DNA of 64,000 nt. Source: an uncultured Oscillospiraceae bacterium (GTDB taxonomy: Bacteria > Bacillota > Clostridia > Christensenellales > CAG-138). Position numbers and translations under genes: made by a program. The notes under the pieces were generated by a model. It ran no database searches and was not told where the DNA came from. It was given only the letters and a program-made list of their open reading frames with translations. Below are positions 23,359 to 64,000 of the stretch, in pieces (position 1 is the first letter of the stretch; each line of letters begins with the position of its first letter). Location: the NCBI GenBank assembly GCA_964474405.1, contig CAYYUV010000006.1:4779-68778 (forward strand). The letters are read 5' to 3'.

Positions 23359-23360
23359 CT

Positions 23361-31060: not shown

Positions 31061-31068
31061 GAGGCGGC

Positions 31069-36514: not shown

Positions 36515-36532
36515 ATAAGGAAGGAGATCGTT

Positions 36533-37744: not shown

Positions 37745-37756
37745 GGAGGCAGGGGT

Positions 37757-38937: not shown

Positions 38938-38940
38938 CGG

Positions 38941-40485: not shown

Positions 40486-40505
40486 TCGGATTAGTCCAAT
40501 CGATT

Positions 40506-40533
40506 AAAAAGCACCGTTTTCGGTGCTTTTTTG
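40506..40533 (+). terminator. intrinsic terminator after citF
   Basis: AAAAAGCACCG, loop tttt, CGGTGCTTTTTT: a perfect hairpin with a T-run. Confidence 0.8.
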
Positions 40534-40562
40534 TTGCATCATTTGGACTAATCTGTTATACT
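40534..40562 (+). promoter_or_regulatory. candidate promoter for the membrane-protein/M20 operon
   Basis: TTGCAT (40534-40539), a 17-nt spacer, then TATACT (40557-40562). The spacer contains one arm of an 11-bp inverted repeat. Confidence 0.45.
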
Positions 40563-40597
40563 ACATACTATACTTGGACGCTTAAGGGGGGATCATT

Positions 40598-41338: not shown

Positions 41339-41348
41339 GAGGTGCGCA

Positions 41349-42023: not shown

Positions 42024-42067
42024 CCGTCCATGCCCAATGAGAATGCGCCCGGTCGGAAGGCGGGATA

Positions 42068-47563: not shown

Positions 47564-47590
47564 CAGACAAACGGGAAAGGACTTACGGAT

Positions 47591-50500
47591 ATGCAGGTGT
47601 ATCAAGTGAATATTAGGAGAATTTTGGCGGTCATAGGAGCGATTGTGTTAGCAGTCGCTTTGGGCTTTTTGCTACCAACCGCTTTTACCCGCGCGGAAAC
47701 GACGACGCCGGTTACCAACCCGGATGATGTAACGATCACCGAGCCGGAAACTGCGCCGGCCGGATCCGCCACGGTTTCCGATCACATGCAGGACACCGAT
47801 TCGAACGACGCCACACCTGCCGTCGATACGATCGATGACGCATCTGCGGAGACCTTTACCAACAAGCTTCCGGTGGTTACGGTAGACCCGGAGACGCAGC
47901 AAACCACCACCACCCCCGCAAAGAATGCGCTTGAGGAAGCAATCCAATACGCATTGGGTCTTGCGGACAGCACCAGCGAATCGGTCACCGTCAAGGTTGC
48001 CGCGGGTCAGTATACCGGCGACATCACGCTTGACGTTGCCGCCGCTCAGAATGTACGGAATTCTTTCATTATAAATATAGTCGCGGCGGACGCCGTTGCT
48101 GACGACGGCTCCTTTAACGCCGAATCGGCCGGCGGCGTCGTGGTCAACGGCAATCTGAACATTGATGGGGTCAATGTGCTTTTGGCTGGTCTGTATCTTG
48201 CTTTGGACAAGGTAGTCAACGTCAAGAACGCTGATTTGACCCTGTACGGCACGGCGGGCGCGGACAATGTAAGTGTAAATCTGGACGGAAATTCCGGCGC
48301 TGACATTCGAACCGGCGCGGGCAACGACACCGTAACCCTGAACGGAACGGCGGTAACAGGAGGTACGCCCGGAAGTGTTTCGGTGGACGGCGGTGCCGGT
48401 GATGACACCGTGGTCGTCAACACCTCCCTGGCTGATGCAAACGGCGCAGTTTCCATTCAGGGCGGCGCCGGCAAGAACCGGCTTCAGCTGGAAGGCGCTC
48501 TTGACAAAACAGAGAATGCGCCGGCTGCGATTTCCAACACGACAAGTGGCGATGCCATCAACTCCATCACGCTGCGCAACAACAGCGGTACGCCTGCGAG
48601 CATTGTCATGACCCTTGCGGACATTCAGGTCTTTACCGACAATCTCACCAACAAGCAGACGCGCAAGATCACCTCCATCGACGCTGACGGTACGGCCTCT
48701 GTCGAGGGCGGCGGCACCATCGCCTCCTTTACAAACTATACATACGACGGCAACATCGACAAGCTTATTGTAAATGCCGATGCGCTTGTTCTGTCCAATC
48801 TGATTGTCAACAAAAAATCGCTGACCGTGAAGGAGCTGAAGGTCGGCACGATGAACGTCACCCTGAACGGGATCAACGTAACGCTGGACGGCAAGATCGA
48901 ATGCTCAACGCTGACCGTCAACGCGTCCGATGACGATATCACGTTCACCATTTTGCCGGGCGTGCTCGATTATGACGTCAGCCTGTTCGACGTGGTCAGT
49001 GAGGCAACCATCACGGTCACGGAGAATGCCGATATCCTGGCTTCGGGTGCAATCGCGCTTCTGGCGTCGAGCGTGCAGACCAAGCCCATGCTGCTGACCG
49101 GATCGCTGAACTTTGTTGCGGTCAAGGTCGGCTCTGCGCTGATCGGCATCAAGGGAAAGCTGAGAGCGGATGCAACGATTATGGCGTCGGCGGTGACTAA
49201 GGTCGTCATCGATTCGAACACGTCGCTTCTGCCGCTCGTGATCAGCGTTGCTGTAACCGACGCCGCGGTCACCGTGGACGGTGAGGCGGAGCTTACGGCA
49301 GGCGGCGGCGTTCAGCTCACCGCGAGCAATACCGTTACAATCAAGGTTTCCACCAGCAGCTCCAGCTATCTGCCGTTTGCGCTCGGCACCTCGGTCGTCG
49401 TGGTGGATTCCCACGTCAAGGTCGGGGATGACGCCGTTATTCGAAGCGGGTCGGGAAGCGTCGAGCTGTATGCGGAGGGCAACACCACCGTCAACACCAA
49501 GGCGGGAAAGGGAACCGCCACGGCGGGCAGCGGCGGGTTCTTTGCCGTCGGCGTTGTCGTGCAGGACGTTTCCGCCATGGTAACCGGTCAGGCTGCCATT
49601 CGCGCTGCCGGTGATGTTTCCGTTAAGTCCAAGTCGATCGAGAAGGTCGTTACCGACGCAACCACGGCCACGGCAGCCGCTGCGGGCGGCGCGGCCAACC
49701 AGCAGAACACATCCGCCAGCGTCACCGCCAGCATCGCAAAGCTGCTGAAAGCGACCGCGGCTCAGATGATGCCGGCAGTCAAGGCCAAGCTCCTTGGTGC
49801 GACGGAGAAGTTTGCCGGGAAGGAATATAATGTAACCGTCTCCGCGACCACCAACGGTTCTGTCACGGTCAACGCCAAGGCGAACGCTGCGGAAACTGTC
49901 AAGTTTACCCCCACCCCCAAAGCGGGATATGAGGTTGATACATATCGCGTAACCTATCTGCCCAAGGGTCAGTCCGCCTATGCGGAGGTTACGGTTGCCA
50001 ACAACAACGACGGCAGCTACTCGTTTGTGATGCCGTCCTATACCGTCACCGAGGACGGTGGCGAGGTTCAGGCTGGTTATGACGTCATCATCACCGTCAC
50101 CTTCCGCGCTTCCTCTGCGACGCCTAGTGATCCGTCCGACGTAGGCAATCTGTTTGGCGATGAGAATACCGGCGACACGGGCGAGGGCGTCAACGATACC
50201 CTCGAAGACGGTACGCAGGGCACGCAGGAGCAGCCGGTTGACCGCGCCACGGCCGATTCGACCGCTACCGACGCCAGAATCATCGCCATCGACACCGCGA
50301 TCCAAAACGGCGCGCTGCTGTCCGCTGTCAAGAAGGTCGATGCGGGCAAAGAGGTGCTTATCACCGTCAATCCGGCGCTCGGTTATTCGCTTACCGCGAA
50401 CACTCTGAAGTTCACCTATACGCGCACAGACACCGATGCCACAGGTGCGGAGAAGGATGTCACCGTTACCGACATGCTTGTCCAAAATGCCAACGGCGAG

Positions 50501-53500
50501 TATGTGCTGACCGTTCCCGCCGGCATTAAGCCGTCGTCCACGATCACGCTGACCGCCGCGTTTTCGCAGGATGCGACGCCTTCCGCCGCCGCAAATACGC
50601 AGACGCGCCGTTCCGCCGTTCAGGTGGTGGGCGCCTTTGCGGTCTCTGTCGTTATCAACAAGAATAACGCCTGCATCGATTCGACCGGACGCATCGACGA
50701 CACTGGCTTTACCGTCATTTCCGGCGGCAATGTACTTGTCGATGCCGTTGCGCTGACACAGGTCACGACCAATGCGGACGGTTCCCCGACCGGGACTGCC
50801 GCCACCGCCGCGACGCCTGCCGCCCCCGGTACCGTAACCGAACCGCTCGGCGAAGCCACCGGTGAGATGATCATTGTGCCGGATTCGCTCAAGGTTGGCA
50901 CCTTATATAATGGAAAGATTCTCTATCTGTCCAACAATGCCGATACGGGCAGCATGACCTATGCCTTCCGCATCACGCCGCGCGACGGCTACAAGCTCGA
51001 TACCACGGCGATGACCGGCGGCGTCAAGCTCAAGTATCAGACCGCCGCGGGTGAAGCCGTCGCAGATCTTGTGTATCATGCGGCTTCGGACACCTATACC
51101 ATCAACCTGACCAACGCAGGCCAGGGTGGGACGGCGATTGCGCCCACTGCCGCTGCGGACGGCACCCGTTGGGCCGTTATCAGTGCCGCGTTCGTTCCCG
51201 ACACGCGTAACATCACCACCGCCGTACAGGGCGGCACGGTCACCGTTTCCACAGAGCAGGTCAATCCGGCCACGTCCGCAAAGGTTGGCGAAGTTGTCTA
51301 TCTCAAGGCGACGCCTACCGCGCCGAACACCGCCGACACCCATGAGCTGACCACACTCTCCTTGACCTATAACAACAAGGCCGGCGTCTCCGTCACCATC
51401 AACATTCCCCGCATTCTTGACGAGAACGGCAATATTTCCTTCACCATGCCGACCGATGTCGCCGACGATTCCGCCGTGGCGATTGCGGGACGCTTTGGTC
51501 TGAAGGGCTTTGAACTGAAAAAGGATTCCGCCTCCGAAACAAAGATCAACCTCAGCACGACCCGTGCCAGCGTAGGCGGGGAGGTTGTCGTCACGCTGAC
51601 CGATGCCGAGATCGCGGCCGGCTCCCAGATCGAGCAGCTGTCCGCCGTCCTCATCGACACGATGGGGCAGGAGGTCAAGCGTTGGACCGTCACTTGCGAC
51701 AGCGCCAACAAAACATGGGCGTTCACGCTGCCTGCGGAGGCCTTTACCGATAATGAAGGCACGTCCTATACCCTTGCTGATTTCTCCGGTGGGGATTCCT
51801 ACCTGTCGTTTGAGGCGGTTATGAGCTCCGCCAATATCGCCGTCAACATCAACACGATGATCAACGGCACCGTTTCCGCTCCCGCAAAGGTCAACGACGG
51901 TCAGAAGATCGAGTTGATCGTTTCGCCGAACACCGGCTATATGCTGAAGGCGGGAACGCTCAAGGTCAAGACCGTGCAGCGCTCGGTCGAGGCGTTGATC
52001 GTTGTGGAGAAGGATGCGGCAACCGGCAAGTATTTCTACTCCGTTCCGCTGCTTCTAGATGACTCCGATGTGATGAACATCGTGGTCTATGCTGAGTTTG
52101 TCCCGGGCAACGCCGCCGGTACCGCCGGACAAAAGAGCTTCAGCGTCGGCGTCGGCGTCAATGTATCCGTCACCAAGCACACCAACCTTGCCCGCATTGA
52201 GAATGCCGTCATTTCCGCGATCGGTCTCTCCGTCACCGCGGCCTCCGGCTCGGAGAAGGAGAAGGTCGAATCCGTTGCCACCGCCAAAGCCGGTTATTCA
52301 TCCGGCAACATTGGCGTAGGCGGCGCCATCGCGGTGCATGTCGCTTCCGCAAAGACCAAAGCGCTGATCTATTCCACGGCCTCAGCCACGCTGCAGGACG
52401 GCGGCTCCTTGACTGTCAAGGCCACGTCGTATGAACGTTTTGCGACGGAGGCTTCCTCAGTCAACGCGCCTCCCGCTGCCGCTGCCGGCACAGTGCCGGG
52501 AATCGGCACGACCCCTGCGACCGGAACCGGTTCGTCCTCCGGCGCGCAGGTCGGCGTGGGCGCCGGCATCGCTGTCGGCGTGTTCGGCGTGGATGTCGTT
52601 GCCGCGATTGAGGACAACACCTCCATTCTCATGACGGATCCGCAGACGGATTCGCTGGATTCCGTTTCCGTTGAGGCCAAGCATGTCTTGTCCGAGTCCC
52701 TGTCCGCCAAGGCGGGCAGCGCGGGCGGCATCTCGGTCACGCCGGTTCTCTCCCTGCTGATCTCCGGCGCCGATGTCCAGTCCTATATCGGCAAATCGGC
52801 CTCCTCGCTGCTGCGGGTCTCTGGGGATGTTTCCCTTCTGGCCGACAGCTCGATCACGCGGGAGGTCGCGGCAAATGCTTCCGCAGCCGGCGGCAACGTC
52901 GGTGTGGGCGGCTCGTTCGTCATTACGGTACCGAACGACAGCGCCTATGCCCGCGCCTCGCGCAGCATGCAGGCACGGAACATCCGGATTATTGCAAAAT
53001 CCAAGAGCATACTTAAGACGGTGTCCCGCGCCGGTTCTCAGGGCGCGGCCAGCCGTCAGCCAAATACCGCCGCCACACCCTCCGCTTCCTCCAAAACTGA
53101 GGCGGACGCACAGGCGGACAGCGCAATACAAGGCGGAGCCGGCCTTGGCGGGCAGGTCGGTTCCAACAACGTGTCCTCCGCCAGCATCGGAGGTCTGACT
53201 GCAAACCGTCAGACCGCGCAGACCAGCGAGGGCAACATCCAGATCGCCGCCGCTTTTGCGCTGAACGTGCAATCCAACCGTTCCTGCGCGTTTGTCGCGG
53301 ACGGCATTACCTTGACTGCCCACGGGCAGGACACCACCGACAGCGACGGAAACATCGTCAAAAACGGCCTCGTTTCCATCGAAAGCTATGCAAGAACCGA
53401 TGCGAGCGTGATCGCCAACGCCTCCGCCACCAAGGCGAAGATCGGCGTAGGCGTTGCCGTCAGCATCAACGTGGTTGATTATGTGAACGAAGCGTACGTT

Positions 53501-56500
53501 GCTGATGCCACGATCGACGCGGATCATCTGAACGTGCTCGCGTTGGTGATCGTGGATTCCAAAGCCAAGATCACGCGCTTTGATTCCTCAGCCGATGACA
53601 ATTTTATCATCAAATATGTCAAGAGCATCGTCACTGAGTGGATCAATGAACTGGTTGAGCAGCTCGGTCTCGGCGACATCTTCAACGGCAAGAACGCCGA
53701 CGGCACCGATGTTCCCGATCAGTATACGCTCGCAGGCGTCATACAGCAGCTGATTGACGATACGCTCGAACAGGCGCTGGACGCGCTGCTTGCGGGCACG
53801 GGTCTGGAGAAGCTGATTGCTGCCGACCTGCCGGATCGCCTGAAGGCCAACTTCAATCTGTTCTTGACCAATCTGGAGCGCGATCTGTACGGCGGAAGCC
53901 CGACTTCCGATGATAAGATCGAACTGAATCAGATTCTGACCGCACTGAATCTGTCGCCCGCGCGCCTTGCTGAGGTTATGGTCGCGCTTCTGATGGATCA
54001 GGCGACCGCCCGCATCGGCGGCACAAATACCACAAACTCCCAGTCCATGATCACCGCGATCACCAGCGGCCTTCGTGCCGAGGTGGCGACCAAGCTCACG
54101 GCCTATTTCAACAACATGGTCACGACCTTGACCAACGATTTGATCGATGTCGCGGCGTTCAAGAACTTTATCAAGGGCAATCTCGCCGATACCCTGCAAC
54201 AGAAGCTTCGCACCATGGCGCAGGAGGTCGGCCGCGCGCTGACCACGACGCTTCTCGACAATCTGTCTTATTGGCTCGACCTCGACGAGGCGGTTGATGA
54301 CGACAGCGATAAGAATACCTTTGTCACGACCGCGGTCGCCGGCGCCGGTGCGTCGAGCGTTGGCGTCGCCGGCAGTGCAGCCATCTCCGTCGTTGACGGC
54401 ACAACCAGAGCCTACATTTCCGACGTCGCGAGCCAGAACGTTTATCGCGTCTATGTTTCCGGCGATGCGATCATTAAGGCTGTCGGCGGCCAAAAGGAAG
54501 AAACGACCGCCACAAGTGCGGTCGGAAGCAACGGCATGGCCGACAAAAATCTGCCCGCCTCCGCCAATTCCGATGTGGGCGGCGGCAGCAGCGCGGGTAC
54601 CACATATCCCGAGCAGCAGTTCCCTGAAAAGAAGTTTGTCATCGGTGCAACGACGAACGGCAAGGTCACGGCAACTGTCAGTCTCAGCAACTATACCATC
54701 AAGGTTACGCCGGATGACGGCTATCAGATCAAGAGCGTTACGCTCACGCGCGACGATACCGGCGCGACCAAGGACGCTACGCGCGGCGCCACCGCGGACG
54801 GCGTGACCACCTATACCGCAAGCTATACCACGGCGGATCATCTGGATACCGCTGCCGTGATCACGATCATCGCCCTGTTTGAAACAAGGCCGATGGAGCT
54901 GACCGGCTCTGGCACCGCCGATGCCGCGGCCGCAGGGAAATATAACCTGCCTGAGGTTCAGAAGGATACCGACCAGAGTCAGATAACCAACTCCTACGTT
55001 ATTAAAGGCACCGATACCGCAAACGGTCACGCCGCCGCCAAATATGAGGATCGCGTGGCTGTTGAGGCGCTGCCTTATGTCAACACCAAGACGGGCACCT
55101 GCTACAAGGTGGCATCCGTTACCTATTCATATACCGCGGGCGGCGTGGCAAAGACCAATGTCGCCGTTGTCACCACCCAGAAGAACGCTGCCGGGCATAC
55201 CGAATACCTGTTCTACATGCCCGACATCGATGCTAATACCACCGTCAGCGTAGCGGTCACGTTCGCGAAGATCACAGATGAGGCCGAACGCCAGCAGGCG
55301 GTGACGCAGGCCAACACCCCGACCAACCAGAGCGGGAAGACCGTGGGTGTGGGCGCTGCATTCGCGTTCGATTATTCCGATCAGACCGTCTATGCGGGCA
55401 TAGGCGCCAACCGCTACTTTAAGAGCGGCACGCTGAACCTCCGCGCGCTTGGAAAGCATGACGCGGAAACCGTTTCGGTCAGCGGCAGTGATCCGCTGAA
55501 TACCGCAGGCACGACCTCCGATACCGGCAAGGCAAAGGATATCGCGCTGGATGCCTCCGCAGCCGTCTCTGTTCTGAACAACAGCATCATTGCCGAGGTC
55601 AAGGCCGGCGCGCTGCTGATCACCACGGGCACAGACACGCTGAACCTCAACGAAAAGGTGTATGACAACGACGCCGAGCGTGAGATGAACGCAGTCTATG
55701 TCAACTGCAACATCGCCGCTGAGGAGATCGTTGAGACGCTGACCCAGGCTTCCGGCTTCGCCACCGGCAACACCACCGCCGTCGGCGCAGCTGTCGCGGT
55801 CAACATTGTGGATTCCGACGTGATTGCACGCTTCCTGGGCACGGGCACGGTCGGCGGTACCGCCAAAGTGTATGCGTACTCGCTCAATGAGGATGACAGC
55901 AAGGCGCTTGCCACTGCCATGGGCGGCGACGTCAAACGCTATGCCGACAAGTTCAAGACCGGCAGCGACACGGCCGAACAGCAGGCGAACAAGGTCACCA
56001 ACGGCGATTATTTCAACAACGGCACGCCTGCCACCGACAATTCAGGCAATCAGACCGGCTCGAACGTCAACGGCGGCCTCAACGGCAACACCGGTTCGGG
56101 TGGTCAGCAGGCCAACAACAATAACCCCACCTCCACCAACGTCCTGCGCAGTCAGAACGCTCAGAGCGAAAGCTCATCTACAACCAATGACACGCAGAAC
56201 AAGGCTGCTGACAAGAACAACGCCAACAACGATGTTCAGCAGGGCGCGGCCGCGTCCGGTACCGGCTCTCAGAAGTATCAGGTTGCCGCTGCCGTCGGTC
56301 TCAACATCACCAACCATAAAGTCACCGCGCTGATCGACGGACGGATCGCCGCTGCAAACCTGTCGGTCTATGCCGACAACAGCGGCAATTTCCGCACACT
56401 GGCAAGCGGCGCTGCGGTAAGCCTTGCAAGGCAGAGTAATTCCATCGCCGCCGGCATCGCCATCAGCGTCAACAACAATAAGGCCACTGCCTACATCTAC

Positions 56501-59500
56501 AACGGTTCCGAAGCGGTTGCTACGGGCGGTAACGCGTCGCCTGCCGATTATGACGGCGCGCTGTCCGTCGAAGCCGAGCTGACGCAAAATCTGGACGGCC
56601 TTTACAAGGGCTATGTCGCAAGTCAGGCGATCGCGGGCGCGATCAGCGGTCAGGGCCAGTTCTGCGTTGCAGTCGCCCTGTCCATCGTCGTGTCGCATGC
56701 ATCCACCGCAGCCGTGATCGGCTTCCTGCCGGAAGGCGAATCTCGCGCCACCACCACGCTGCGCGCGGGCGATATCGTCATTCGCGCCACCGACAAGAGC
56801 AAGCTGGCCGTCCGCGCCGGAGCGCTGTCCATCTCAACGGGCGCATCCGTCGGCGCAGGCGCTTCGTTCGCGCTTGTATATGCCAACAACAAGGTTAAGG
56901 CGCAGATTGCAGACCGTGCGGTGATCTACGGCACCTCGCTTTCCGTCACCGCCGAGAAACTCAGAGTCAGCCTTTCGGATTATGAGAGCGCGTTTGACTT
57001 CTCCAATGTAGTATCCAATTCGTCCAATCTGCCTGAGGGTGAAGTCGGAAAAGGCATGATTGACATTAAGAAGGGGTCGGGGGAGGACACCAGCTATAAG
57101 GTTACGATCAACATGAGCTCCGACAAGCTGCTCTCTACGATCGACCTGTTGAATTTCCTTGCCTCCGTCAACTATTATGCCGAGGCCATAGCGGGTTCCA
57201 TCATCGAAGGCGCACAGGCGCAGAATGCCAAGGCCTCTGTTGCAGGCTCCTTTGCGATGATCTTCTTCTACAATACGGTCGACGCCCTGATCGGTAACAA
57301 TGTGACGGTCTCGCTCACGAAAAAGAACGCGGAGGATACCGGCTCGATGCTGGTGCATGCCGCGGATGATGCGAACGTTCGCATGATCGCGGGCGCGCTG
57401 TCCGTAAGTCCCGCCAAGGCCGGCGTCGGCTTGACCCTTGGATTCCTGCTCAATGAGGATGTGACCACCGCCCGTGTCGGCAGCGATACCGCCATCGTCT
57501 GTGACGGTGATTTCGTGCTGGCTGCCTCCGGTGCTGAGGACATTCTGGTCATCACCATCGCTGCGAGCATCGCACACGGTGCATCTGGTGTTTCCGTTGG
57601 CGGCGCCATCACGGCGATTGCACCGCAGAACACCGTTCAGGCAATCATGGATGCGCGCGCTACTGTCCTTGCGGGCGGCAGCATCGCCGTCAACGCCGAT
57701 TTGGACGCTTTCCTGATGCTGTTCTCCGCGTCTGTCAGCGCGGGCACCGGCAATGCCGCCGTCGGCGGCACAATCGCCGTTCTTGTCAATGAGAGCAGCG
57801 TCCTGGGCGAGGTCAACAACGCCGTATCCCTGCGTGCGGGCGGTGACGTAACCGTCCATGCCGCGACGGCCGAGCGCATGATCAACGGTCTTTGCTCTGC
57901 CTCTGCCGCACTTGGCACCGGCACAAGCGTGTCCGGCACGGTCGGCATTCTCGTTTCCCTCTCAGAAACAAAAGCCATCGTTCGCGATGATGTTGTTATC
58001 GTCTCCCACGGCAACACCGCTGTGGAGGCATCGTCCGCATCCCGCATGATCGTCATCGAAGCCGCCCTGTCCGCTGCGACCGGCGGGAACGCGGTCGGCG
58101 CGGTGCTCACGGTCAACGTCTTTGAACGCACGGTTTTGGCCGAGGTTGGCATTGTGTCGATTGCCGCTGACGGCGATGTGCGTATCACAGCGTTGTCCGA
58201 GGAGCTGACGCTGCTTGTCGCCCTTTCGGTTGGCGCATCTGCCCAGACCGCCGTTTCCGGCACGGTTCCGCTGATTGTCAGCCTGACCTCCGCCAGAGCG
58301 GTGATTTCGGACGGAACCGCTGACAACCATGCCATGCTTACCGCCGGCGGCTCCATCGTCGTGGCGGCTGACAACGAAGCCGGTCTTTACCAGATCGGCG
58401 GCGGGCTTGCTGCCGCGGGCTCCAATGCCGTGGGCGCTACGGTGTCTGTTCTGGTGACCAAAGCCAAGATTCATGCGATTATCGGCTCTTATGCGGTACT
58501 GACCGCGGCTGGAAACGGCAGCGGCATCAACATTTCGCTTCCGTCCTCGCGTGCGCTCCGCAGGAAGGGCATTCTGCTCTCCGCAACGGGGCATGAGGAC
58601 ATCGTTCTTGTGTCGATCAGCGCGGCTGCTGCCGGAAGCAACGCCATCACCGGCGTGATCAACACCCTGGTTGCCAAGAATGAGGTTCTGGCAAAGGCCA
58701 ACACCGGCGCGAAGCTTTACGCCGGAACCGCCGAGGACGCGGATGCCGGTACAACACTGGTTGAGGCGTCTGTGGAGGCGGATGCTTCCGATGATGCATC
58801 TATATTAAACCTGGCGGGCTCCCTGTCCGCAGCCGGAAACGTCGGCGTCGGCGCAACGGTCGTTGTGCTTGTCTTTGGCAAGCAGGTGGAAGCCTCCCTG
58901 GGCAGCGCCGCCGTCGTCTGGGCGACCGGTGATGTCCTGGTTCATGCACGTGCAAACGATCAGCTGATCCTGCTTGCTATCGCATTCGGCGCGGCGGGCA
59001 CCGCCGGCGTGGCGGGCGGCGTCAACGTGCTGGTGTTCCAGAACAGCGTTTCTGCCTCTCTCGGCGGCAAGGTGGATGCGGCGGGCTCCGTCAGTGTGAC
59101 GGCGTCCACCGACAGCACGCTTCACAACATCGCTGCGGCGGTCGGCCTGGGCGGAACCGCCGGCGTGACCGCGGTCGCGATTGTCACCTATTTCTATAAC
59201 GAGACGCTGGCAGTTGTGTCCTCAGGCGCCACTGTCAATGCGGGCGGCAACATCACCGTGTCCGCAGTCTCGCAGGAGCTCATCAACGCCGATGCGGCAG
59301 GCGCTGCTGCCGGCGGTACGGCCGGCGTCGGCGGCACCATGGATGTCATTGTGACCAAGATCGTGACGCAGGCATACACGGAGGACAACGTTCGTCTGAC
59401 GGCGGGCGGCGACCTTTCGATCACCGCCACGGATCATTACAAGCTGATCGCCGTGGTCGTTACGATCGCGGGCGGCGGCACGGCAGGTGTCGGCGTGACC

Positions 59501-62500
59501 GTCCTTGCAAGCGTCAGCTTCAACACGGTCTCCGCCATTGTTGGCGCTGCAAACGACATCAAAGGTAACGATATCCTCATCCAGTCCGCCTCCAATCGCG
59601 ATGTGCTGAGCATCACGGCAAGCCTCGCACTGGCGGGCGTTGCGGCGGTCGGCGTGTCCGTATCGGTTGTCGTTGCGGGCAACAAGCTGTCGCAGGATGC
59701 GCATGACGGCATCTATGCCGACGACGCGCAGTATATCTACACCGACGCAGATGAGAACACCTACCGCGTGTTCTCCTACACGGATTCAAACGGCAACACC
59801 GTCTATCTGTACGAGAAGTTCGATTCGGATAAAACATACGGTCTGTACACGCTCAACAATGACGGCACCCTGTCCGCCTCCGACTATAAGGGCGACAAGA
59901 CGCCGGTTGTTCAGCAGCCGGTGCAGGACGAATATACCTCCGGCACGGATTATCTGACCTATACCGACGCGCAGGGCGACACCTATTACATGCTTCGGTA
60001 TCGTCCGTTTGGCGCGGAGTTCTCCGTCTATCGTGATGTCAACGGCGAGCTGTATTCTGCGCCCGATGTCGCCAGAGGCGATCTGGTTCTGTCCGCCGTA
60101 CAGTCCGATACCCATCCGGATTATTGGACCTACTCCGATGCGGAAGGCAATCTCTACTATATCTATAAGGGCGTCTATAAGAAGGTTGGCAGTGATTTCT
60201 CCCTGACGCCTGCATATGTTGGCGGCCTCACGGCTGTAACGGACGGAGACGGCAAAGCGGCCGTTGACACTGTGTCCAATACATATCGCATCTATCGGGA
60301 CAACACAACCAATGCGCTCGTCTATGCGCGTCTCGGCTCCGACGAGGCGGAGGATGGCACCTACTGGGCGCTTACGGACGGTGCGATGCAGCAGCTTGCG
60401 GGCGTCGTCAGCACCAATTTGACCGCCGTTATGACCGGCTCCGGCACGATGGATCCGCAATCGCAGGTTACGGGCGCACTGTCCTCCGGAAGCCAAAAAG
60501 CGCTCTTTGACCTCTCGCTTGACGATCTGAACACTCTGCTCGCAGGCGACGGCCAGACGTCCTCCAGTCAGGGCAGCGGCTTTGATTCCTTCGGTCAGGA
60601 TACCAAGGGACAGCTTTATGTCAAAGGAAGCGACGGCAAGTATACTCCGGTTGCAGATGACAAAGCGGACGGTACCTTGCGCTATATGCGCATCGGTGAA
60701 GACTATGTTGCCGTGGGCAAGGTGGACGACAAGCTGTATGTTCTGAAGGACGGCGCCTATCAGGAAGCCGCTTCGGACGATGCGCAGCTTCCGCACTATG
60801 TGCTTTACGGCGGGAACTATATCGCTGTTCCGCTCGCCGGCGTCACGCTTCACAGCGAGGCAGGCGATGACAATATCTCCCAACAGGGCAATGCCGAAAG
60901 CAGCGCAGATTCCGTCTCCACCGGCACGTCCTTCCGTCCCACGCCGAACGGCGCATGGAAGGATGCGACCGCTGCGCGAATCACCGCAGCAAGCGACGCC
61001 TTCCCCTCCGGCAAGTCAACCGTCACCGCCGCGGGCAACCTAAGCGTGCTGGCCGGCGACAGCGTGAATGCAAATATGATCGCGGGTACGATCGCTCTCG
61101 GCATCGGCGCAGCGGGCGTCGGCGTCGGTGTGTCGGTCTCCACCCTGTTCTCCAATGTGACGGCCTCTGTCGATGCCGGCGTCACACTCGCCGCTGACGG
61201 CGATATCACCGTCAAGGCGTCGAGTGGCTCTACTCCCGATTCCATCCGACAGATCGGAAACGGCAAAACGGGCGACACAGCCGTGTCCTCGCAGCCGGTC
61301 AACGACAAGGTTGCCGGCAGCGTGGAGAATACGGATTTAGCTTCCCAGTCTGACAACAGCGGGGAAGAGACCGTGTCCTTCAACGGGCAATCCACCATAC
61401 GTCTGATCTCGGTCACCGGTGCCGGCGGCTTTGTCGGCGTCGGCGTATCCGTTGCATCGTTGCTGGTGTTCTCCAAGGTGGAAGCCACCATGTACGGAAC
61501 CGTTGAACGGGCGGCTAATCTCGCGGTTAATGCAGACATGGACTTTGGTTCCGTGTTGACCGTAACCCTTGCTGCGGGCGGCGGCTTTGTCAGCGTCAAC
61601 GTATCCGCTGGCGTCGCCTACTATGAAGGCATCGTTGTCTGCGGGATCGGCGGAAACGCGCGCATCTCCAATGTATCCGGCAAGATTGATGTAAAGACGA
61701 CAGGTGGCAGCAACACCATCGCGGTTGCCTCCGCCATTGGCGGCGGCGCGGTCGCGGTCAATGCTGGCATGGCCATGGCCATCAGCCGCACCCGGATCGA
61801 CACCTTCATCGGCCGCGGCGTTACGATCGATGCACCCAGCGCCGACATCACCGTATCCACCGACTTTACCTCGGCCGTTTATGGCACGATTCTCAGCATT
61901 ACCGGCGGCGCGGTTGCCGTTGGTGTGTCGCTGGTCATCGCCATCAACATGCCGACCGCCTATACTTATATCGGCCTCACCCCGTGCGATGATGCTTCGG
62001 ATGTGCTGGATGCATCCCGCGGCACCGTGACGGGCGGCGTCCGTGCCCGCAACGTAACCGTAAACAATTCGCTGGGCGGTCGCACCGTGGTCATTGGCGT
62101 GGGCATTGCGGGCGGCGCGGTTGCCGTCAACGGCATCGTGGCGCTTGGCTTCAACTTCATGAAGGGCTATGCGGCCATCAACCAGGTCTCAGTCTCGGCC
62201 AATGCAGACACCGGCACGATTGCTGTCAATGCAAACATGTCCGGCAACACTCGCGTTCTTACGACTGCGCTGACCGGTGGCGCCATTGCCGTCGGTGCAA
62301 CGGTCGCTTTGTCGCTGCTCAAGTCCGACAGCCGCGCCATCATCGACCTGACCGGCGCTTCGCTTCGTGCCAAGACGGTTTCCGTCAACGGCGGTACGTC
62401 CGCCGCGCCGTATGATTCCGAGGCGCTTGTTCTGATGATCACCGGAAGCGCCGGCGCGGTAGCGGTTGCGGTCAACATCGGCGTTGCCCTCAACATGTCT

Positions 62501-64000
62501 GGCAACCGCGCCATCGTGCGCGGAGGGACGGGCGGCACGCTCGATGCCGGCTCGCTGAACATCGCTGCATACGGCAAATCCCGCGCATATGCGGTCGTAT
62601 CCGGCATCAGCGTCGGCGCCATTGCTGCAAACGTCAGCTTTGCCATTTCCTATATTAAGAGCAGTCAGGAAGCCCTGATCATCGATCTTGGCGGCGGGCA
62701 TGCCCGTTATACCCTTGGAGCACTGACGGTCGAATCCCATCAGAATGAGGGCACTGAAACGGGTCTGTCGCGCATTCTGAGCCTCATCTATGACCTTTCG
62801 GATGCACAGAAGAACGAGGAAGGCGCTGTTGAAACCAAAGCGGTTTCGTTTACAAACCTGGCGCAGTCGTTCATCTTCTCCTGCTCCGCGGGTCTCGGCG
62901 TTGTCGCCGTAAATACCGCGCTTGCGATCTCGGATGCGCTCAGCCGGGCCAAAGTGGATGCGGCTGACCTTACCGTCAACGGCGGCTCCATTACGGTCAA
63001 GAATGTCGCCTGCTCCACGGCCAACAGCAGCATCCTGAACCTTTCGGCCGGTTTTGCAGCCATTGGCGTCATGTCCGGCGCGGCGTATGCGGACGGCACG
63101 TTCGAAGCGCTGCTGATGACCAACGGCAACATCAACGTTGACGGCAACATCAGCATTACAAACACCTATACTGGGAGGGCGGTTGCTTCCATCACGCCTG
63201 CCAACGCGGGTCTTGGGCTCAACATCTCGTCCAACCTTGCTATCGCTGTCACACGCACCAGAGCCAACACCGGCATAGACGGAACCGGCAGCATCCGGGC
63301 TGGCCAGGTCACAGTTACCACAACGGGCATCTCAACTGCCAAGGCGGAGACGGTGGTTCCGATATTCGCCGCGCTCGAGGTGTCTTACATCAGCGTCGGT
63401 GCCAACAACGTATCCGCTACGGTCAGCGCGGTACAGGAGACGTTCATTCGCAACATTCTGATGCTGGATGCTGACAGCGTTGCTGTCACCGGTTATTTCA
63501 ACTGGGCCGGCGACAACAACTATGCGTACGGCGCAGAGGCCAAGGTTGGCGGAAACGGCTTTGCCGGCAACGAGATCAAGCTGAAGATGTACGGCGGCAC
63601 TGAGAACATGGCAGTCGCCTACATGTCCGGCATCAGCCGCACCTATACGCAGAACGCGGGGCTGGACGTTGCGGGCTCGCTGTCCGTCAACGGCTATCAT
63701 ACAACCGCCGCAGCTGGCGGTGTTACAAGCGGCAGCTCGGTTTCCTATGTCGCGATCAACATCACCGCAATCTATGCGCATGCGGACGGCACCTTCCATA
63801 CCGGTATTCATACCGGAAAACGCAGCGTCAAGGCAAAGAACATTCAGGTCGCCAACACCTATTATGCCAATGCGAATGCACTCGCTTCGACTGCTTCCGC
63901 CGGTGTTGAGGCCTCCGTGGTTCACGCAGGGATGAATGTCTCTCTGGCAGACGCAAACCCCGTCGTAACCGCGACCATTGCGCGCAACGATCATGACGGC
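47591..64000 (+). CDS. giant secreted repeat protein (adhesin-like, predicted beta-solenoid-rich); 3' end beyond the window, at least 5,470 aa
   Basis: I read no in-frame stop from ATG 47591 to base 64000 (16,410 nt, divisible by 3). No listed + strand ORF in this region occupies this frame. GC3 bias is strong. The N-terminal signal or anchor is MQVYQVNIRRILAVIGAIVLAVALGFLLPTAFTRAETTTP. Composition is Ala/Gly/Thr/Val/Asn/Asp-rich and repetitive. Confidence 0.85.
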   Translation, partial: MQVYQVNIRRILAVIGAIVLAVALGFLLPTAFTRAETTTPVTNPDDVTITEPETAPAGSATVSDHMQDTDSNDATPAVDTIDDASAETFTNKLPVVTVDPETQQTTTTPAKNALEEAIQYALGLADSTSESVTVKVAAGQYTGDITLDVAAAQNVRNSFIINIVAADAVADDGSFNAESAGGVVVNGNLNIDGVNVLLAGLYLALDKVVNVKNADLTLYGTAGADNVSVNLDGNSGADIRTGAGNDTVTLNGTAVTGGTPGSVSVDGGAGDDTVVVNTSLADANGAVSIQGGAGKNRLQLEGALDKTENAPAAISNTTSGDAINSITLRNNSGTPASIVMTLADIQVFTDNLTNKQTRKITSIDADGTASVEGGGTIASFTNYTYDGNIDKLIVNADALVLSNLIVNKKSLTVKELKVGTMNVTLNGINVTLDGKIECSTLTVNASDDDITFTILPGVLDYDVSLFDVVSEATITVTENADILASGAIALLASSVQTKPMLLTGSLNFVAVKVGSALIGIKGKLRADATIMASAVTKVVIDSNTSLLPLVISVAVTDAAVTVDGEAELTAGGGVQLTASNTVTIKVSTSSSSYLPFALGTSVVVVDSHVKVGDDAVIRSGSGSVELYAEGNTTVNTKAGKGTATAGSGGFFAVGVVVQDVSAMVTGQAAIRAAGDVSVKSKSIEKVVTDATTATAAAAGGAANQQNTSASVTASIAKLLKATAAQMMPAVKAKLLGATEKFAGKEYNVTVSATTNGSVTVNAKANAAETVKFTPTPKAGYEVDTYRVTYLPKGQSAYAEVTVANNNDGSYSFVMPSYTVTEDGGEVQAGYDVIITVTFRASSATPSDPSDVGNLFGDENTGDTGEGVNDTLEDGTQGTQEQPVDRATADSTATDARIIAIDTAIQNGALLSAVKKVDAGKEVLITVNPALGYSLTANTLKFTYTRTDTDATGAEKDVTVTDMLVQNANGEYVLTVPAGIKPSSTITLTAAFSQDATPSAAANTQTRRSAVQVVGAFAVSVVINKNNACIDSTGRIDDTGFTVISGGNVLVDAVALTQVTTNADGSPTGTAATAATPAAPGTVTEPLGEATGEMIIVPDSLKVGTLYNGKILYLSNNADTGSMTYAFRITPRDGYKLDTTAMTGGVKLKYQTAAGEAVADLVYHAASDTYTINLTNAGQGGTAIAPTAAADGTRWAVISAAFVPDTRNITTAVQGGTVTVSTEQVNPATSAKVGEVVYLKATPTAPNTADTHELTTLSLTYNNKAGVSVTINIPRILDENGNISFTMPTDVADDSAVAIAGRFGLKGFELKKDSASETKINLSTTRASVGGEVVVTLTDAEIAAGSQIEQLSAVLIDTMGQEVKRWTVTCDSANKTWAFTLPAEAFTDNEGTSYTLADFSGGDSYLSFEAVMSSANIAVNINTMINGTVSAPAKVNDGQKIELIVSPNTGYMLKAGTLKVKTVQRSVEALIVVEKDAATGKYFYSVPLLLDDSDVMNIVVYAEFVPGNAAGTAGQKSFSVGVGVNVSVTKHTNLARIENAVISAIGLSVTAASGSEKEKVESVATAKAGYSSGNIGVGGAIAVHVASAKTKALIYSTASATLQDGGSLTVKATSYERFATEASSVNAPPAAAAGTVPGIGTTPATGTGSSSGAQVGVGAGIAVGVFGVDVVAAIEDNTSILMTDPQTDSLDSVSVEAKHVLSESLSAKAGSAGGISVTPVLSLLISGADVQSYIGKSASSLLRVSGDVSLLADSSITREVAANASAAGGNVGVGGSFVITVPNDSAYARASRSMQARNIRIIAKSKSILKTVSRAGSQGAASRQPNTAATPSASSKTEADAQADSAIQGGAGLGGQVGSNNVSSASIGGLTANRQTAQTSEGNIQIAAAFALNVQSNRSCAFVADGITLTAHGQDTTDSDGNIVKNGLVSIESYARTDASVIANASATKAKIGVGVAVSINVVDYVNEAYVADATIDADHLNVLALVIVDSKAKITRFDSSADDNFIIKYVKSIVTEWINELVEQLGLGDIFNGKNADGTDVPDQYTLAGVIQQLIDDTLEQALDALLAGTGLEKLIAADLPDRLKANFNLFLTNLERDLYGGSPTSDDKIELNQILTALNLSPARLAEVMVALLMDQATARIGGTNTTNSQSMITAITSGLRAEVATKLTAYFNNMVTTLTNDLIDVAAFKNFIKGNLADTLQQKLRTMAQEVGRALTTTLLDNLSYWLDLDEAVDDDSDKNTFVTTAVAGAGASSVGVAGSAAISVVDGTTRAYISDVASQNVYRVYVSGDAIIKAVGGQKEETTATSAVGSNGMADKNLPASANSDVGGGSSAGTTYPEQQFPEKKFVIGATTNGKVTATVSLSNYTIKVTPDDGYQIKSVTLTRDDTGATKDATRGATADGVTTYTASYTTADHLDTAAVITIIALFETRPMELTGSGTADAAAAGKYNLPEVQKDTDQSQITNSYVIKGTDTANGHAAAKYEDRVAVEALPYVNTKTGTCYKVASVTYSYTAGGVAKTNVAVVTTQKNAAGHTEYLFYMPDIDANTTVSVAVTFAKITDEAERQQAVTQANTPTNQSGKTVGVGAAFAFDYSDQTVYAGIGANRYFKSGTLNLRALGKHDAETVSVSGSDPLNTAGTTSDTGKAKDIALDASAAVSVLNNSIIAEVKAGALLITTGTDTLNLNEKVYDNDAEREMNAVYVNCNIAAEEIVETLTQASGFATGNTTAVGAAVAVNIVDSDVIARFLGTGTVGGTAKVYAYSLNEDDSKALATAMGGDVKRYADKFKTGSDTAEQQANKVTNGDYFNNGTPATDNSGNQTGSNVNGGLNGNTGSGGQQANNNNPTSTNVLRSQNAQSESSSTTNDTQNKAADKNNANNDVQQGAAASGTGSQKYQVAAAVGLNITNHKVTALIDGRIAAANLSVYADNSGNFRTLASGAAVSLARQSNSIAAGIAISVNNNKATAYIYNGSEAVATGGNASPADYDGALSVEAELTQNLDGLYKGYVASQAIAGAISGQGQFCVAVALSIVVSHASTAAVIGFLPEGESRATTTLRAGDIVIRATDKSKLAVRAGALSISTGASVGAGASFALVYANNKVKAQIADRAVIYGTSLSVTAEKLRVSLSDYESAFDFSNVVSNSSNLPEGEVGKGMIDIKKGSGEDTSYKVTINMSSDKLLSTIDLLNFLASVNYYAEAIAGSIIEGAQAQNAKASVAGSFAMIFFYNTVDALIGNNVTVSLTKKNAEDTGSMLVHAADDANVRMIAGALSVSPAKAGVGLTLGFLLNEDVTTARVGSDTAIVCDGDFVLAASGAEDILVITIAASIAHGASGVSVGGAITAIAPQNTVQAIMDARATVLAGGSIAVNADLDAFLMLFSASVSAGTGNAAVGGTIAVLVNESSVLGEVNNAVSLRAGGDVTVHAATAERMINGLCSASAALGTGTSVSGTVGILVSLSETKAIVRDDVVIVSHGNTAVEASSASRMIVIEAALSAATGGNAVGAVLTVNVFERTVLAEVGIVSIAADGDVRITALSEELTLLVALSVGASAQTAVSGTVPLIVSLTSARAVISDGTADNHAMLTAGGSIVVAADNEAGLYQIGGGLAAAGSNAVGATVSVLVTKAKIHAIIGSYAVLTAAGNGSGINISLPSSRALRRKGILLSATGHEDIVLVSISAAAAGSNAITGVINTLVAKNEVLAKANTGAKLYAGTAEDADAGTTLVEASVEADASDDASILNLAGSLSAAGNVGVGATVVVLVFGKQVEASLGSAAVVWATGDVLVHARANDQLILLAIAFGAAGTAGVAGGVNVLVFQNSVSASLGGKVDAAGSVSVTASTDSTLHNIAAAVGLGGTAGVTAVAIVTYFYNETLAVVSSGATVNAGGNITVSAVSQELINADAAGAAAGGTAGVGGTMDVIVTKIVTQAYTEDNVRLTAGGDLSITATDHYKLIAVVVTIAGGGTAGVGVTVLASVSFNTVSAIVGAANDIKGNDILIQSASNRDVLSITASLALAGVAAVGVSVSVVVAGNKLSQDAHDGIYADDAQYIYTDADENTYRVFSYTDSNGNTVYLYEKFDSDKTYGLYTLNNDGTLSASDYKGDKTPVVQQPVQDEYTSGTDYLTYTDAQGDTYYMLRYRPFGAEFSVYRDVNGELYSAPDVARGDLVLSAVQSDTHPDYWTYSDAEGNLYYIYKGVYKKVGSDFSLTPAYVGGLTAVTDGDGKAAVDTVSNTYRIYRDNTTNALVYARLGSDEAEDGTYWALTDGAMQQLAGVVSTNLTAVMTGSGTMDPQSQVTGALSSGSQKALFDLSLDDLNTLLAGDGQTSSSQGSGFDSFGQDTKGQLYVKGSDGKYTPVADDKADGTLRYMRIGEDYVAVGKVDDKLYVLKDGAYQEAASDDAQLPHYVLYGGNYIAVPLAGVTLHSEAGDDNISQQGNAESSADSVSTGTSFRPTPNGAWKDATAARITAASDAFPSGKSTVTAAGNLSVLAGDSVNANMIAGTIALGIGAAGVGVGVSVSTLFSNVTASVDAGVTLAADGDITVKASSGSTPDSIRQIGNGKTGDTAVSSQPVNDKVAGSVENTDLASQSDNSGEETVSFNGQSTIRLISVTGAGGFVGVGVSVASLLVFSKVEATMYGTVERAANLAVNADMDFGSVLTVTLAAGGGFVSVNVSAGVAYYEGIVVCGIGGNARISNVSGKIDVKTTGGSNTIAVASAIGGGAVAVNAGMAMAISRTRIDTFIGRGVTIDAPSADITVSTDFTSAVYGTILSITGGAVAVGVSLVIAINMPTAYTYIGLTPCDDASDVLDASRGTVTGGVRARNVTVNNSLGGRTVVIGVGIAGGAVAVNGIVALGFNFMKGYAAINQVSVSANADTGTIAVNANMSGNTRVLTTALTGGAIAVGATVALSLLKSDSRAIIDLTGASLRAKTVSVNGGTSAAPYDSEALVLMITGSAGAVAVAVNIGVALNMSGNRAIVRGGTGGTLDAGSLNIAAYGKSRAYAVVSGISVGAIAANVSFAISYIKSSQEALIIDLGGGHARYTLGALTVESHQNEGTETGLSRILSLIYDLSDAQKNEEGAVETKAVSFTNLAQSFIFSCSAGLGVVAVNTALAISDALSRAKVDAADLTVNGGSITVKNVACSTANSSILNLSAGFAAIGVMSGAAYADGTFEALLMTNGNINVDGNISITNTYTGRAVASITPANAGLGLNISSNLAIAVTRTRANTGIDGTGSIRAGQVTVTTTGISTAKAETVVPIFAALEVSYISVGANNVSATVSAVQETFIRNILMLDADSVAVTGYFNWAGDNNYAYGAEAKVGGNGFAGNEIKLKMYGGTENMAVAYMSGISRTYTQNAGLDVAGSLSVNGYHTTAAAGGVTSGSSVSYVAINITAIYAHADGTFHTGIHTGKRSVKAKNIQVANTYYANANALASTASAGVEASVVHAGMNVSLADANPVVTATIARNDHDG
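53570..54310 (+). other. predicted alpha-helical insert domain (about 247 aa) within the giant ORF
   Basis: Composition switches from Gly/Ala/Val/Thr beta-type repeats to Leu/Glu/Asp/Ile amphipathic sequence, for example IVTEWINELVEQLGL...VIQQLIDDTLEQALDALLAGTGLEKLIAADL...FKNFIKGNLADTLQQKLRTMAQEVGRAL. Confidence 0.55.
55950..56275 (+). repeat. Asn/Gln/Gly/Thr-rich low-complexity segment within the giant ORF
   Basis: Translation reads ...NGDYFNNGTPATDNSGNQTGSNVNGGLNGNTGSGGQQANNNNPTSTNVLRSQNAQSESSSTTNDTQNKAADKNNANNDVQQG... Confidence 0.6.
57413..59700 (+). repeat. tandem array of about 14 degenerate 52-60-aa repeats inside the giant ORF
   Basis: The core motif G-x-x-x-V-G-x-x-V-x-V-L-V-x(4)-V-x-A-x-[IVL] recurs at about 57413, 57581, 57749, 57920, 58082, 58241, 58418, 58634, 58835, 58997, 59153, 59315, 59477 and 59636. 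Confidence 0.75.
59690..60990 (+). other. Tyr/Asp/Gly-rich hairpin-repeat-like insert (about 430 aa) within the giant ORF
   Basis: Recurrent Y-[TS]-D-x-x-G-[ND]-x-x-Y-type units: YTDSNGNTVYLY, YTDAQGDTYYMLRY, YSDAEGNLYYIYKG, KGQLYVKGSDGKYT, DKLYVLKDGAYQ. Confidence 0.55.

Follow-up and report, generated by a model that had tools for sequence, protein, structure and literature searches.

A stop-free frame of 5,470 codons in an uncultured Oscillospiraceae bacterium encodes a probable giant surface fibre with LktA-type repeats

We analysed a 64,000-nucleotide stretch of DNA from an uncultured Oscillospiraceae bacterium (GTDB lineage Bacteria; Bacillota; Clostridia; Christensenellales; CAG-138; GenBank assembly GCA_964474405.1, contig CAYYUV010000006.1, positions 4,779 to 68,778 of the forward strand), called the window below, in which a giant gene starts at position 47591 and is still open at the last base. 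Genes of ~30 kb are very rare in bacteria, and they are badly served by open reading frame (ORF) callers, by assemblers and possibly by protein databases. The windowed part of the gene encodes a signal peptide, a conserved head, immunoglobulin (Ig)-like modules and arrays of beta repeats, and it lies directly behind a gene for a tetratricopeptide repeat (TPR) protein. The gene has the following features (aa, residues of the giant protein; HMM, hidden Markov model; P labels denote library proteins related to the giant protein, and L labels, used further below, denote genome or metagenome loci).

47574..47581, + strand: ribosome-binding site GGAAAGGA, ending 9 nt 5' of ATG 47591 (sequence reading)
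47591..64000, + strand: giant ORF, 5,470 codons, cut by the window end (no stops, codon usage, collinear relatives)
47591..47695, + strand: Sec signal peptide, aa 1-35 (basic RR, 18-residue hydrophobic core, cleavage between AFTRA and ET)
47696..47920, + strand: acidic Thr/Pro/Asp/Glu-rich linker, aa 36-110 (sequence; poorly conserved in the N-terminal alignment)
47921..48580, + strand: conserved head, aa 111-330 (capping helix, AAGxYxGDI motif, four GGxGxD-type turns)
48581..49690, + strand: first beta-repeat segment, aa 331-700 (repeat HMM; first LktA-type repeats at aa 549-682)
49811..52051, + strand: Ig-like module region, InlB B-repeat (Flg_new_2)-like (Pfam below cutoff, self-similarity, HMM)
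52142..53524, + strand: LktA-type repeat cluster, aa 1518-1978 (repeat HMM; weak NF012206 match)
53558..54340, + strand: Leu/Glu/Lys-rich insert, aa ~1990-2250 (sequence reading; conserved in P0016, P0020 and P0017)
54626..54817, + strand: fifth Ig-like module, aa 2346-2409 (HMM, E 6e-25)
55958..56275, + strand: low-complexity Asn/Gln/Ser/Thr-rich linker, aa ~2790-2895 (sequence; equivalents in P0016, P0017 and P0014)
56282..59650, + strand: main LktA-type array of ~54-residue units, aa 2898-4020 (NF012206, repeat HMM, AlphaFold2)
59708..60940, + strand: variable Tyr/Asp/Gly-rich insert, aa ~4040-4450 (YTD-x-x-G-x-x-Y hairpin-like motifs, low-complexity tail)
60941..64000, + strand: most conserved block, aa 4451-5470, running off the window (homolog search, alignment, self-similarity)
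e.g. 48905-50485 (526 aa), 53588-55030 and 59786-60883, - strand: antisense ORFs of 340-526 aa inside the giant gene (ORF list)

Machine translation confirmed what a first-pass annotation had read from the letters, namely that not one in-frame stop occurs among the 5,470 codons between 47591 and 64000 on the + strand. The frame was missing from the ORF list that accompanied this annotation, and the reason it gave, that the frame runs off the window, proved correct, as the list omits ORFs that cross an end. Its observation that the listed + strand ORFs avoid the register with coordinate mod 3 equal to 2 was likewise reproduced; all those of at least 100 aa start at mod 3 = 0. Upstream, the stop codon of the TPR gene, a TAG at 47561-47563, shuts the frame, so that ATG 47591 is the earliest possible start. 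At the stop-triplet frequency of the window, the probability of an open frame of 5,470 codons arising by chance is ~1e-56. The third codon positions had also been described as overwhelmingly G/C, and we indeed measured GC fractions of 0.58, 0.49 and 0.72 at codon positions 1, 2 and 3. A codon-usage log-likelihood trained on eight Pfam-confirmed genes of the same window gave +0.44 per codon in the giant frame vs -1.06 to +0.06 in the other five frames, and the giant frame scored best in all 35 sliding windows. The first-pass annotation had named a codon-usage score in favour of the antisense ORFs as an outcome that would refute it; this scoring did not favour them, and we rejected them as genes. 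The antisense frame that matches the codon register of the gene contains just 22 stops in 5,470 codons and has a poor codon-usage score, which accounts for the long antisense ORFs as shadows of the giant gene with its GC-rich third codon positions.

The encoded protein is rich in Ala, Val, Gly, Thr and Ser (Ser 8.9%) and holds only 13 Cys and 10 Trp among its 5,470 residues. A Cys- and Trp-poor, Ala/Thr-rich make-up is a signature of giant surface proteins (PMC10756260), and the windowed protein fits it. The earlier description of the product as Cys-poor and rich in small residues was therefore right, whereas its visible repetitiveness holds at the protein level only, where internal repeats are distant (26-35% identical in self-comparison). 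At the DNA level, positions 47000-64000 contain no tandem repeats besides one 2-copy 21-mer, and this scarcity argues against an assembly artefact.

Collinear relatives, with 27-51% identity, were found at fifty loci from metagenome-assembled genomes (MAGs) of uncultured Clostridia and from metagenomes. Word-indexed protein searches with tiles of the protein yielded 9, 6 and no hits, mostly fragments; one of them gave fragments of 700-1,760 aa (33-46% identity, all metagenomic). A scan of the GTDB species genomes with patterns from aa 4450-5000 gave 20 loci, all in uncultured MAGs labelled Christensenellaceae/Christensenellales, Oscillospiraceae, Clostridia, Eubacteriales or Anaerovorax, with one bin labelled Coriobacteriia. 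Searches of the genome loci by tblastn showed orthologue-like relatives with single, collinear high-scoring segment pairs of up to 3,800 aa at 35-42% identity, and in 17 of the 20 the frame was open over the whole 21.5-kb locus, that is, for >7,100 codons and off both ends. When the protein library was searched exhaustively by HMMER with aa 3215-3990, 583 representative proteins matched at E <= 1e-3, 111 of them at E <= 1e-30, and many of these relatives are 6,000-7,984 aa long. The family is large, and its members are confined to uncultured Clostridia of the gut and of anaerobic digesters, among them Christensenellaceae-like and Oscillospiraceae MAGs. For one relative from the human gut, L036, the ratio of nonsynonymous to synonymous substitution rates (dN/dS) against L040, L041, L044 and L058 was 0.10-0.18 over 4,230 codons, and its strain variants carry 41-396 substitutions and no indel over the same number of codons, which indicates that purifying selection acts on this gene.

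In several metagenome contigs (L001, L004, L007 and L028) the homologous region is broken into two to six ORFs. Such split genes occur mainly in long-read or fragmentary metagenome contigs; the ORFs overlap in L001, L007 and L028, and an in-frame stop splits L004. At 9947-10001 of L004 (JGI 3300017814; the same in L005 and L006), ORFs of 4,108 aa and 1,018 aa in the same frame are separated by one stop and 51 nt, and a 2,721-aa ORF with He_PIG, Big_3 and Flg_new follows in another frame, an arrangement for which three genes, a nonsense mutation or readthrough are the options. Another library relative from the human gut, P0005 (1,759 aa; L002 3588-10609 and L003 2-6978), starts at the equivalent of window aa ~3,650 directly behind a serine recombinase with RepA_N, IstB and Cys_rich_VLP genes, and it keeps a sorting signal of VPTTG, a transmembrane helix and RKRRIRKA. 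A mobile element appears to have inserted into this giant gene and truncated P0005.

The relatives also bear on how far the protein extends. The closest, P0016 (39-42% identity, 7,893 aa), is N-terminally truncated at the equivalent of window aa ~1,800; window aa 5466 corresponds to its residue 3310, after which 4,583 residues follow. P0022, P0029, P0031 and P0040 carry ~3,500-4,100 residues past the equivalent of the window end, and L008 at least 2,881 with the frame still open. The gene was thus rightly said to continue beyond the window, probably for another 3,500-4,600 residues if these relatives are a guide, and because of these extensions we extrapolate a full protein of roughly 9,000-10,000 residues, of which the window would hold ~55%. 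The lengths of library relatives crowd just below 8,000 aa (7,984, 7,941, 7,920, 7,912, 7,894 and 7,893, among others), with none longer. Products above ~8,000 aa may be left out by the library or by its gene caller, hiding the largest bacterial proteins, because nothing exceeds 7,984 aa and yet the loci imply genes of >7,800 aa that are open at both ends, and P0016 already has 7,893 aa as an N-terminally truncated fragment.

Downstream of the window-end equivalent, P0016 continues with beta repeats, an amphipathic Lys/Ile/Val-rich segment, a long mixed region and Glu/Lys-rich coiled coils, and it terminates in short beta-helix-like repeats, a Pro/Lys/Asp linker and a hydrophobic transmembrane helix with a KKR tail. 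Pfam found no match in the last 3,481 residues of P0016, in the downstream parts of L008 and L027, or in the two genes after the L001 homolog. A transmembrane helix with a basic tail ends 14 of the 159 library relatives, and sortase-type motifs occur in two (SPQTG in P0073, VPTTG in P0005). P0029 and P0040 (full-length, ~7,900 aa) have no anchor and share a C-terminal domain of ~200 residues (…LALDVTVNGREMTLYVLVGTTDEGKLVLLGLFLGPRDTDEAFWLEILSYLRYG…), whose motif may resemble the N-terminal part of Mutator/IS256-type transposases.

At the other end of the protein, the proposed N-terminal signal followed by a Thr/Pro/Asp linker was borne out. The signal is of the Sec type with an A-x-A cleavage site, and comparable signal peptides (A-x-A followed by E, D or S) are present at all visible starts of giant genes, in L025, L028 and most of L029-L058; 44 of the 159 library relatives begin with Met and a hydrophobic N-terminus. 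In the head behind the linker, Gly and Asp columns, including those of the four GGxGxD-type turns (aa ~220-300), are invariant among the aligned relatives. An AlphaFold2 model of aa 91-720 from a five-sequence alignment reached a mean local confidence (pLDDT) of 74 and a predicted template-modelling (TM) score (pTM) of 0.65, with long strand pairs from aa ~460 on. Foldseek gave weak but consistent matches of the head to RTX beta-rolls, namely serralysin 5d7w (probability 0.92), LipA, CyaA block V and AlgE R-modules, all at E >= 0.01, the sole match with E < 0.001 being unrelated. Pfam HemolysinCabind had no match in the windowed part of the protein. From motif and model, the head is probably an RTX-like, calcium-binding beta-roll that lies below any family threshold.

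Pfam searches with six overlapping tiles of aa 1-5470 gave nothing above cutoff and left practically the whole protein uncovered, and sequence searches of the PDB (with 5,000 aa and with the N-terminal profile) found no match. The repeat that the first-pass annotation had left unnamed was assigned by NCBIfam tiling to NF012206 (LktA_tand_53, 'tandem repeat-containing filamentous protein'), which scored 65.2 bits in aa 2701-3700 and 86.9 bits in aa 3601-4600, against a curated cutoff of 50 bits and with 4-5 matching stretches per passing tile; three further tiles matched more weakly. This LktA repeat is the only curated model whose threshold the giant protein passes. A repeat HMM iterated on the protein detected 33 copies of a ~54-residue unit, clustered at aa 549-682, 1518-1978, 2256-2605, 2898-3121, 3215 to ~4019 (14 contiguous units) and 4460-4933. 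The most conserved block consists of divergent beta repeats with the motifs STIRLISVT, GGAVAVNAG and RTRIDTFIG.

The main array was modelled with high confidence. For aa 3380-3990, AlphaFold2 with a ten-sequence alignment gave a pLDDT of 89 (433 of 611 residues >90) and a pTM of 0.87, and the model is all beta. Each repeat contributes two strands of ~20 residues with a turn of 2-3 residues between them, plus one strand of ~4 residues; in the first 200 residues of the model the long strands are split into 11 + 7 and 14 residues, with short strands between. Foldseek found nothing significant for the array in the PDB (best E 0.036, TM <= 0.09) or in BFVD, and the insignificant top matches were mostly beta-solenoids, comprising PL6 alginate lyases, Ag43, CsgA, FapC, a tailspike and a serine-rich repeat protein (SRRP). 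The strand pattern and these weak matches suggest that the stalk is probably a wide beta-solenoid with one repeat per coil.

The repeat clusters are accompanied by modules and inserts of other kinds. HMM searches located five Ig-like modules (aa 741-816, 902-977, 1100-1143, 1411-1487 and 2346-2409), and self-comparison paired aa 910-976 with aa 1428-1486. In sequence these modules resemble the InlB B-repeat domain but stay below the family threshold; the best Pfam score for Flg_new/Flg_new_2 (PF09479/PF18998) was 20.2 bits vs a cutoff of 23.6, at aa 746-805, and the sub-cutoff E-values of Flg_new_2 were 5.9e-4 and 0.017. The Leu/Glu/Lys-rich insert is probably helical, judging from its residues. 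Much of the Tyr-rich insert (aa ~4115-4430) is missing or different in many relatives, and Pfam has no match to aa ~4040-4450.

Two genes lie immediately upstream.

43533..46046, + strand: LuxR-family regulator, 837 aa (Pfam GerE, E 2.8e-16, C-terminal helix-turn-helix; N-terminal P-loop)
46136..47563, + strand: TPR protein, 475 aa, membrane-anchored (Pfam TPR_2, TPR_16 and TPR_1, E ~1e-15 to 1e-12)

The TPR gene ends 27 nt upstream of the giant-gene start. No terminator-like site was found between the two genes, and around the giant-gene start, promoter and terminator predictions were no more frequent than in shuffled sequence. When metagenomes were scanned with the N-terminal profile of the giant protein, 30 loci came up, and in 22 of these a TPR homolog (24-31% identity, near full length) stands directly upstream of the giant gene; L028 shows the same order, and P0014 is a TPR-giant fusion or a deletion product. 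The TPR protein has an N-terminal hydrophobic helix at aa ~32-52, and because RRR precedes this helix, the positive-inside rule places the TPR domain probably outside the membrane. From this topology and the synteny, we propose that the TPR protein may be an export, folding or assembly partner of the giant protein. The LuxR-family protein carries a Walker-A-like SGYGKS motif by sequence reading and is a possible local regulator of the locus. No homolog of it was found by tblastn near the relatives in the 30 loci, so the conserved unit is the TPR gene plus the giant gene, a partnership that the first-pass annotation had not noted, with the LuxR regulator outside it; its place in L036 is taken by a LytTR response regulator and a histidine kinase. 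None of the nine upstream genes in the window is of the TpsB type, nor was such a gene seen upstream in L032 or L036, and the upstream window genes scanned include no type I secretion system (T1SS) and no accessory Sec genes.

Taken together, we consider it likely, at a probability of about two in three, that the gene encodes a surface fibre or adhesin that is exported by Sec, anchored at its C-terminus and equipped with a beta-roll tip, an all-beta stalk and a TPR partner. The cleavable signal peptide would send the giant protein through the Sec pathway, and a C-terminal membrane or sortase-type anchor beyond the window would, by analogy with the closest relatives, hold it at the cell. With a signal peptide at the N-terminus and an anchor at the C-terminus, the head would come to lie at the distal tip, where the acidic linker would be joined to the beta-roll, which is RTX-like and probably binds calcium. 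LktA-type repeats of ~54 residues would form the long, all-beta stalk, probably a wide beta-solenoid, broken up by Ig-like modules, by the probably helical insert and by the lineage-variable Tyr-rich insert. On the outer side of the membrane, the TPR protein would help the giant protein to be exported, folded or assembled, and the fibre may serve in attachment to host mucus, particles or other cells, or as a surface coat. A body of all-beta repeats with Ig-like modules is the architecture expected of a surface fibre, as the first-pass annotation had suggested. Of its wording 'adhesin or fibre', the second term gains support from this body, and the first would follow only by inference.

Several observations weigh against this proposal. 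A subgroup of relatives, including L027 and L004, ends in a conserved acidic domain (…QPVWPEWTGEDTAEDIGG…) without an anchor. As the protein's own C-terminus lies beyond base 64000 and the relatives have C-termini of at least two kinds, the giant protein could be released instead of anchored. The solenoid geometry is deduced from a strand pattern and from Foldseek matches with TM <= 0.09, and the repeats may instead adopt an antiparallel hairpin arrangement. The monoderm envelope is deduced from the MAG names of the relatives. Pfam, NCBIfam and PDB sequence searches of the giant protein and of the relatives' parts found no binding, enzymatic or toxin domain, and the label 'adhesin' is read from the architecture. 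Finally, the only named family that was matched, the LktA repeat, derives from a secreted cytotoxin.

Known systems that compare with a Sec-exported, C-terminally anchored fibre include the giant surface proteins of Gram-positive bacteria. Like the windowed protein, Ebh and Embp of staphylococci, the 7,651-aa adhesin of Mobiluncus mulieris and Giant1-5 of Apilactobacillus kunkeei begin with a Sec signal peptide and have a beta-solenoid-like head at the N-terminus, behind which a rod extends. Imperfect repeats take up thousands of residues in all of them, and their composition is poor in Cys and rich in Ala and Thr. Gram-positive giant surface proteins attach to the cell at the C-terminus (PMC12863079, PMC10619420). 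The rods differ, consisting of alpha-helical repeats in Giant1-3 and Embp and of Ig-like strings in Mobiluncus, whereas here a 54-residue all-beta array is predicted. We detected no sequence similarity to the Gram-positive giants, and the windowed part contains no DUF5776/SH3b, FIVAR or LPXTG. By analogy, the windowed protein would resemble these proteins in how it works, with a rod that is built differently.

The RTX adhesins LapA, SiiE and MpIBP are likewise giant fibres with calcium-binding GGxGxD beta-rolls and Ig-like modules (PMC5550230, PMC6272769). However, their RTX block and type I secretion signal are both C-terminal and they lack a Sec signal peptide, whereas the putative beta-roll here is N-terminal and lies behind a Sec signal. 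An RTX adhesin exported by a T1SS was rejected in view of this N-terminal position of GGxGxD, the absence of HemolysinCabind and of upstream T1SS genes, and the transmembrane anchor of P0016. A serine-rich repeat protein was also rejected, given the Ser content of 8.9%, the lack of Ser-rich repeat regions and the lack of accessory Sec genes upstream.

Very large, predicted secreted proteins of gut Clostridia and Bacillota have also been described in a survey of giant Clostridia proteins (10.1101/2023.11.21.568195) and as 'Hodor' megaplasmid giants (10.64898/2026.02.21.707213). According to the accessible text of these sources, such giants carry signal peptides and Listeria-Bacteroides-type repeats and are predicted to be anchored by sortase or in the membrane. 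Compared by these descriptions, they carry RCC1, YG, dockerin, S-layer or MBG domains, none of which Pfam finds in the windowed protein. The accessible text of the two sources makes no mention of an LktA-type repeat or of a TPR partner.

Among the rival explanations, the one that survives best, though we think it unlikely, is that the giant protein is a structural subunit of a surface layer, a sheath or a biofilm matrix, acting as coat or scaffold with no ligand-specific adhesion. An enormous, all-beta protein rich in small residues would suit such a role, as would the spread of the family over many Clostridia lineages and the lack of any recognisable ligand-binding domain. The head has the RsaA S-layer protein with its calcium-type beta-roll among its weak Foldseek matches, and the curli CsgA and FapC amyloids are among those of the repeat array, but all these matches are insignificant. 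Moreover, Pfam finds no SLH or other S-layer domain in the windowed part, and the occurrence as one gene copy, with Ig-like modules set between the repeats and an insert that varies, would rather be expected of a fibre adhesin.

It is considerably less probable that the protein is a released cytotoxin, acting like the leukotoxin LktA of Fusobacterium necrophorum, with no cell-bound fibre. The passing scores of NF012206 in two tiles and the anchor-less C-termini of some relatives point in this direction, and LktA is likewise a very large secreted protein, a diderm cytotoxin of ~3,200 aa exported by the two-partner LktB/LktA system (10.1101/534297). LktA and the windowed protein, as matched by NF012206, have in common a repeat unit of ~53 residues and a very large, beta-rich, exported form. 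The match, however, concerns a structural repeat and includes no toxic module. Unlike LktA, the windowed protein has a Sec signal peptide, no N-terminal two-partner secretion (TPS) domain and no TpsB upstream; its extrapolated full length is ~three times greater, and it has Ig-like inserts, a conserved TPR partner gene and relatives with C-terminal anchors. A TpsA exoprotein of the LktA, FHA or CdiA type was rejected, since Pfam finds no Haemagg_act/TPS domain in aa 1-1000, where the Sec signal, the linker and the RTX-like head stand instead. That the relatives come from MAGs of commensal gut and digester Clostridia, and that the closest, P0016, ends in a membrane anchor, argues further against a released cytotoxin.

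We regard it as highly improbable that the gene encodes a polymorphic-toxin delivery stalk of the CdiA or WapA kind with a C-terminal toxin beyond the window. The C-terminal 40-45% of the protein does lie outside the window, giant beta-repeat stalks with variable C-termini are typical of these systems, and the relatives do have differing ends. Nevertheless, Pfam matches to toxin, RHS, LXG or PT domains are absent from the last 3,481 residues of P0016 and from the downstream parts of L004, L008 and L027, and the ends observed in relatives are membrane anchors or the conserved acidic domain. No pattern of small immunity-like genes was seen, and no search aimed at one was made. The weakest alternative, that the frame is an assembly artefact, a decaying pseudogene or a chance frame in GC-rich DNA, can point to the split homologs and to the relative truncated by a mobile element (L002/L003), but it is scarcely credible given zero stops in 5,470 codons, the best codon usage throughout, no DNA repeats able to mislead an assembler, frames of >7,100 codons in 17 of 20 genome loci, the low dN/dS of relatives, and the concentration of split versions in long-read contigs, which often carry frameshift errors.

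The rest of the window contains the following further features.

21958-24464 and 28275-32439, + strand: two MBOAT + DHHW gene pairs, resembling DltB/AlgI-type surface-polymer O-acyltransferase pairs
32452-33930, + strand: RCC1-repeat protein, 492 aa (RCC1_2, E 2e-33)

A GDSL lipase and an MBOAT gene also stand directly after the giant genes in L004 (21423-23057), and together with the MBOAT pairs of the window this may hint that a surface polymer, or the fibre itself, is acylated. RCC1 repeats build another class of giant Oscillospiraceae proteins, as described in the accessible text of the Clostridia survey (10.1101/2023.11.21.568195). Nearly all genes of the window are on the + strand, and 548-16355 and 34190-43507 (+) look like ordinary chromosomal metabolism. 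These two stretches hold genes for a sugar ABC transporter (fused permease-ATPase), a complete 2-oxoacid dehydrogenase complex (E1 alpha, E1 beta, E2 and E3), an FGGY kinase, an M81/MlrC peptidase, aconitase, isocitrate dehydrogenase, citrate lyase CitE/CitF, DUF5058 and an M20 peptidase. Rfam reported no element, tRNA gene or rRNA gene at the gathering score over the whole window.

We tentatively advance a broader proposal, which we consider less likely than not. The TPR and giant genes would form a surface-fibre system of two genes that has not been described and is widespread in Clostridia, where at least 583 protein clusters, defined at 50% identity, contain the repeat array. Its stalk would be a new, unusually wide beta-solenoid with ~54 residues per coil, unlike any solved structure and homologous to the Fusobacterium leukotoxin repeats, and the TPR protein, lying outside the cytoplasm, would act specifically in its assembly. 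If this is true, a single building block would have served in a diderm for a toxin exported by two-partner secretion and in monoderms for fibres of ~10,000 residues that leave through Sec and are anchored at the C-terminus. The LktA-repeat link could also help to explain the architecture of that veterinary toxin. The confident repeat-array model without a PDB match and the linked TPR partner are two concrete experimental targets. The giant type of protein is itself already known elsewhere; what the locus adds is a large, uncharacterised family of giant secreted surface proteins that lies almost wholly outside Pfam. If its members are surface fibres, they would probably be a major determinant of the attachment of these abundant uncultured commensals to mucus, particles and partner cells.

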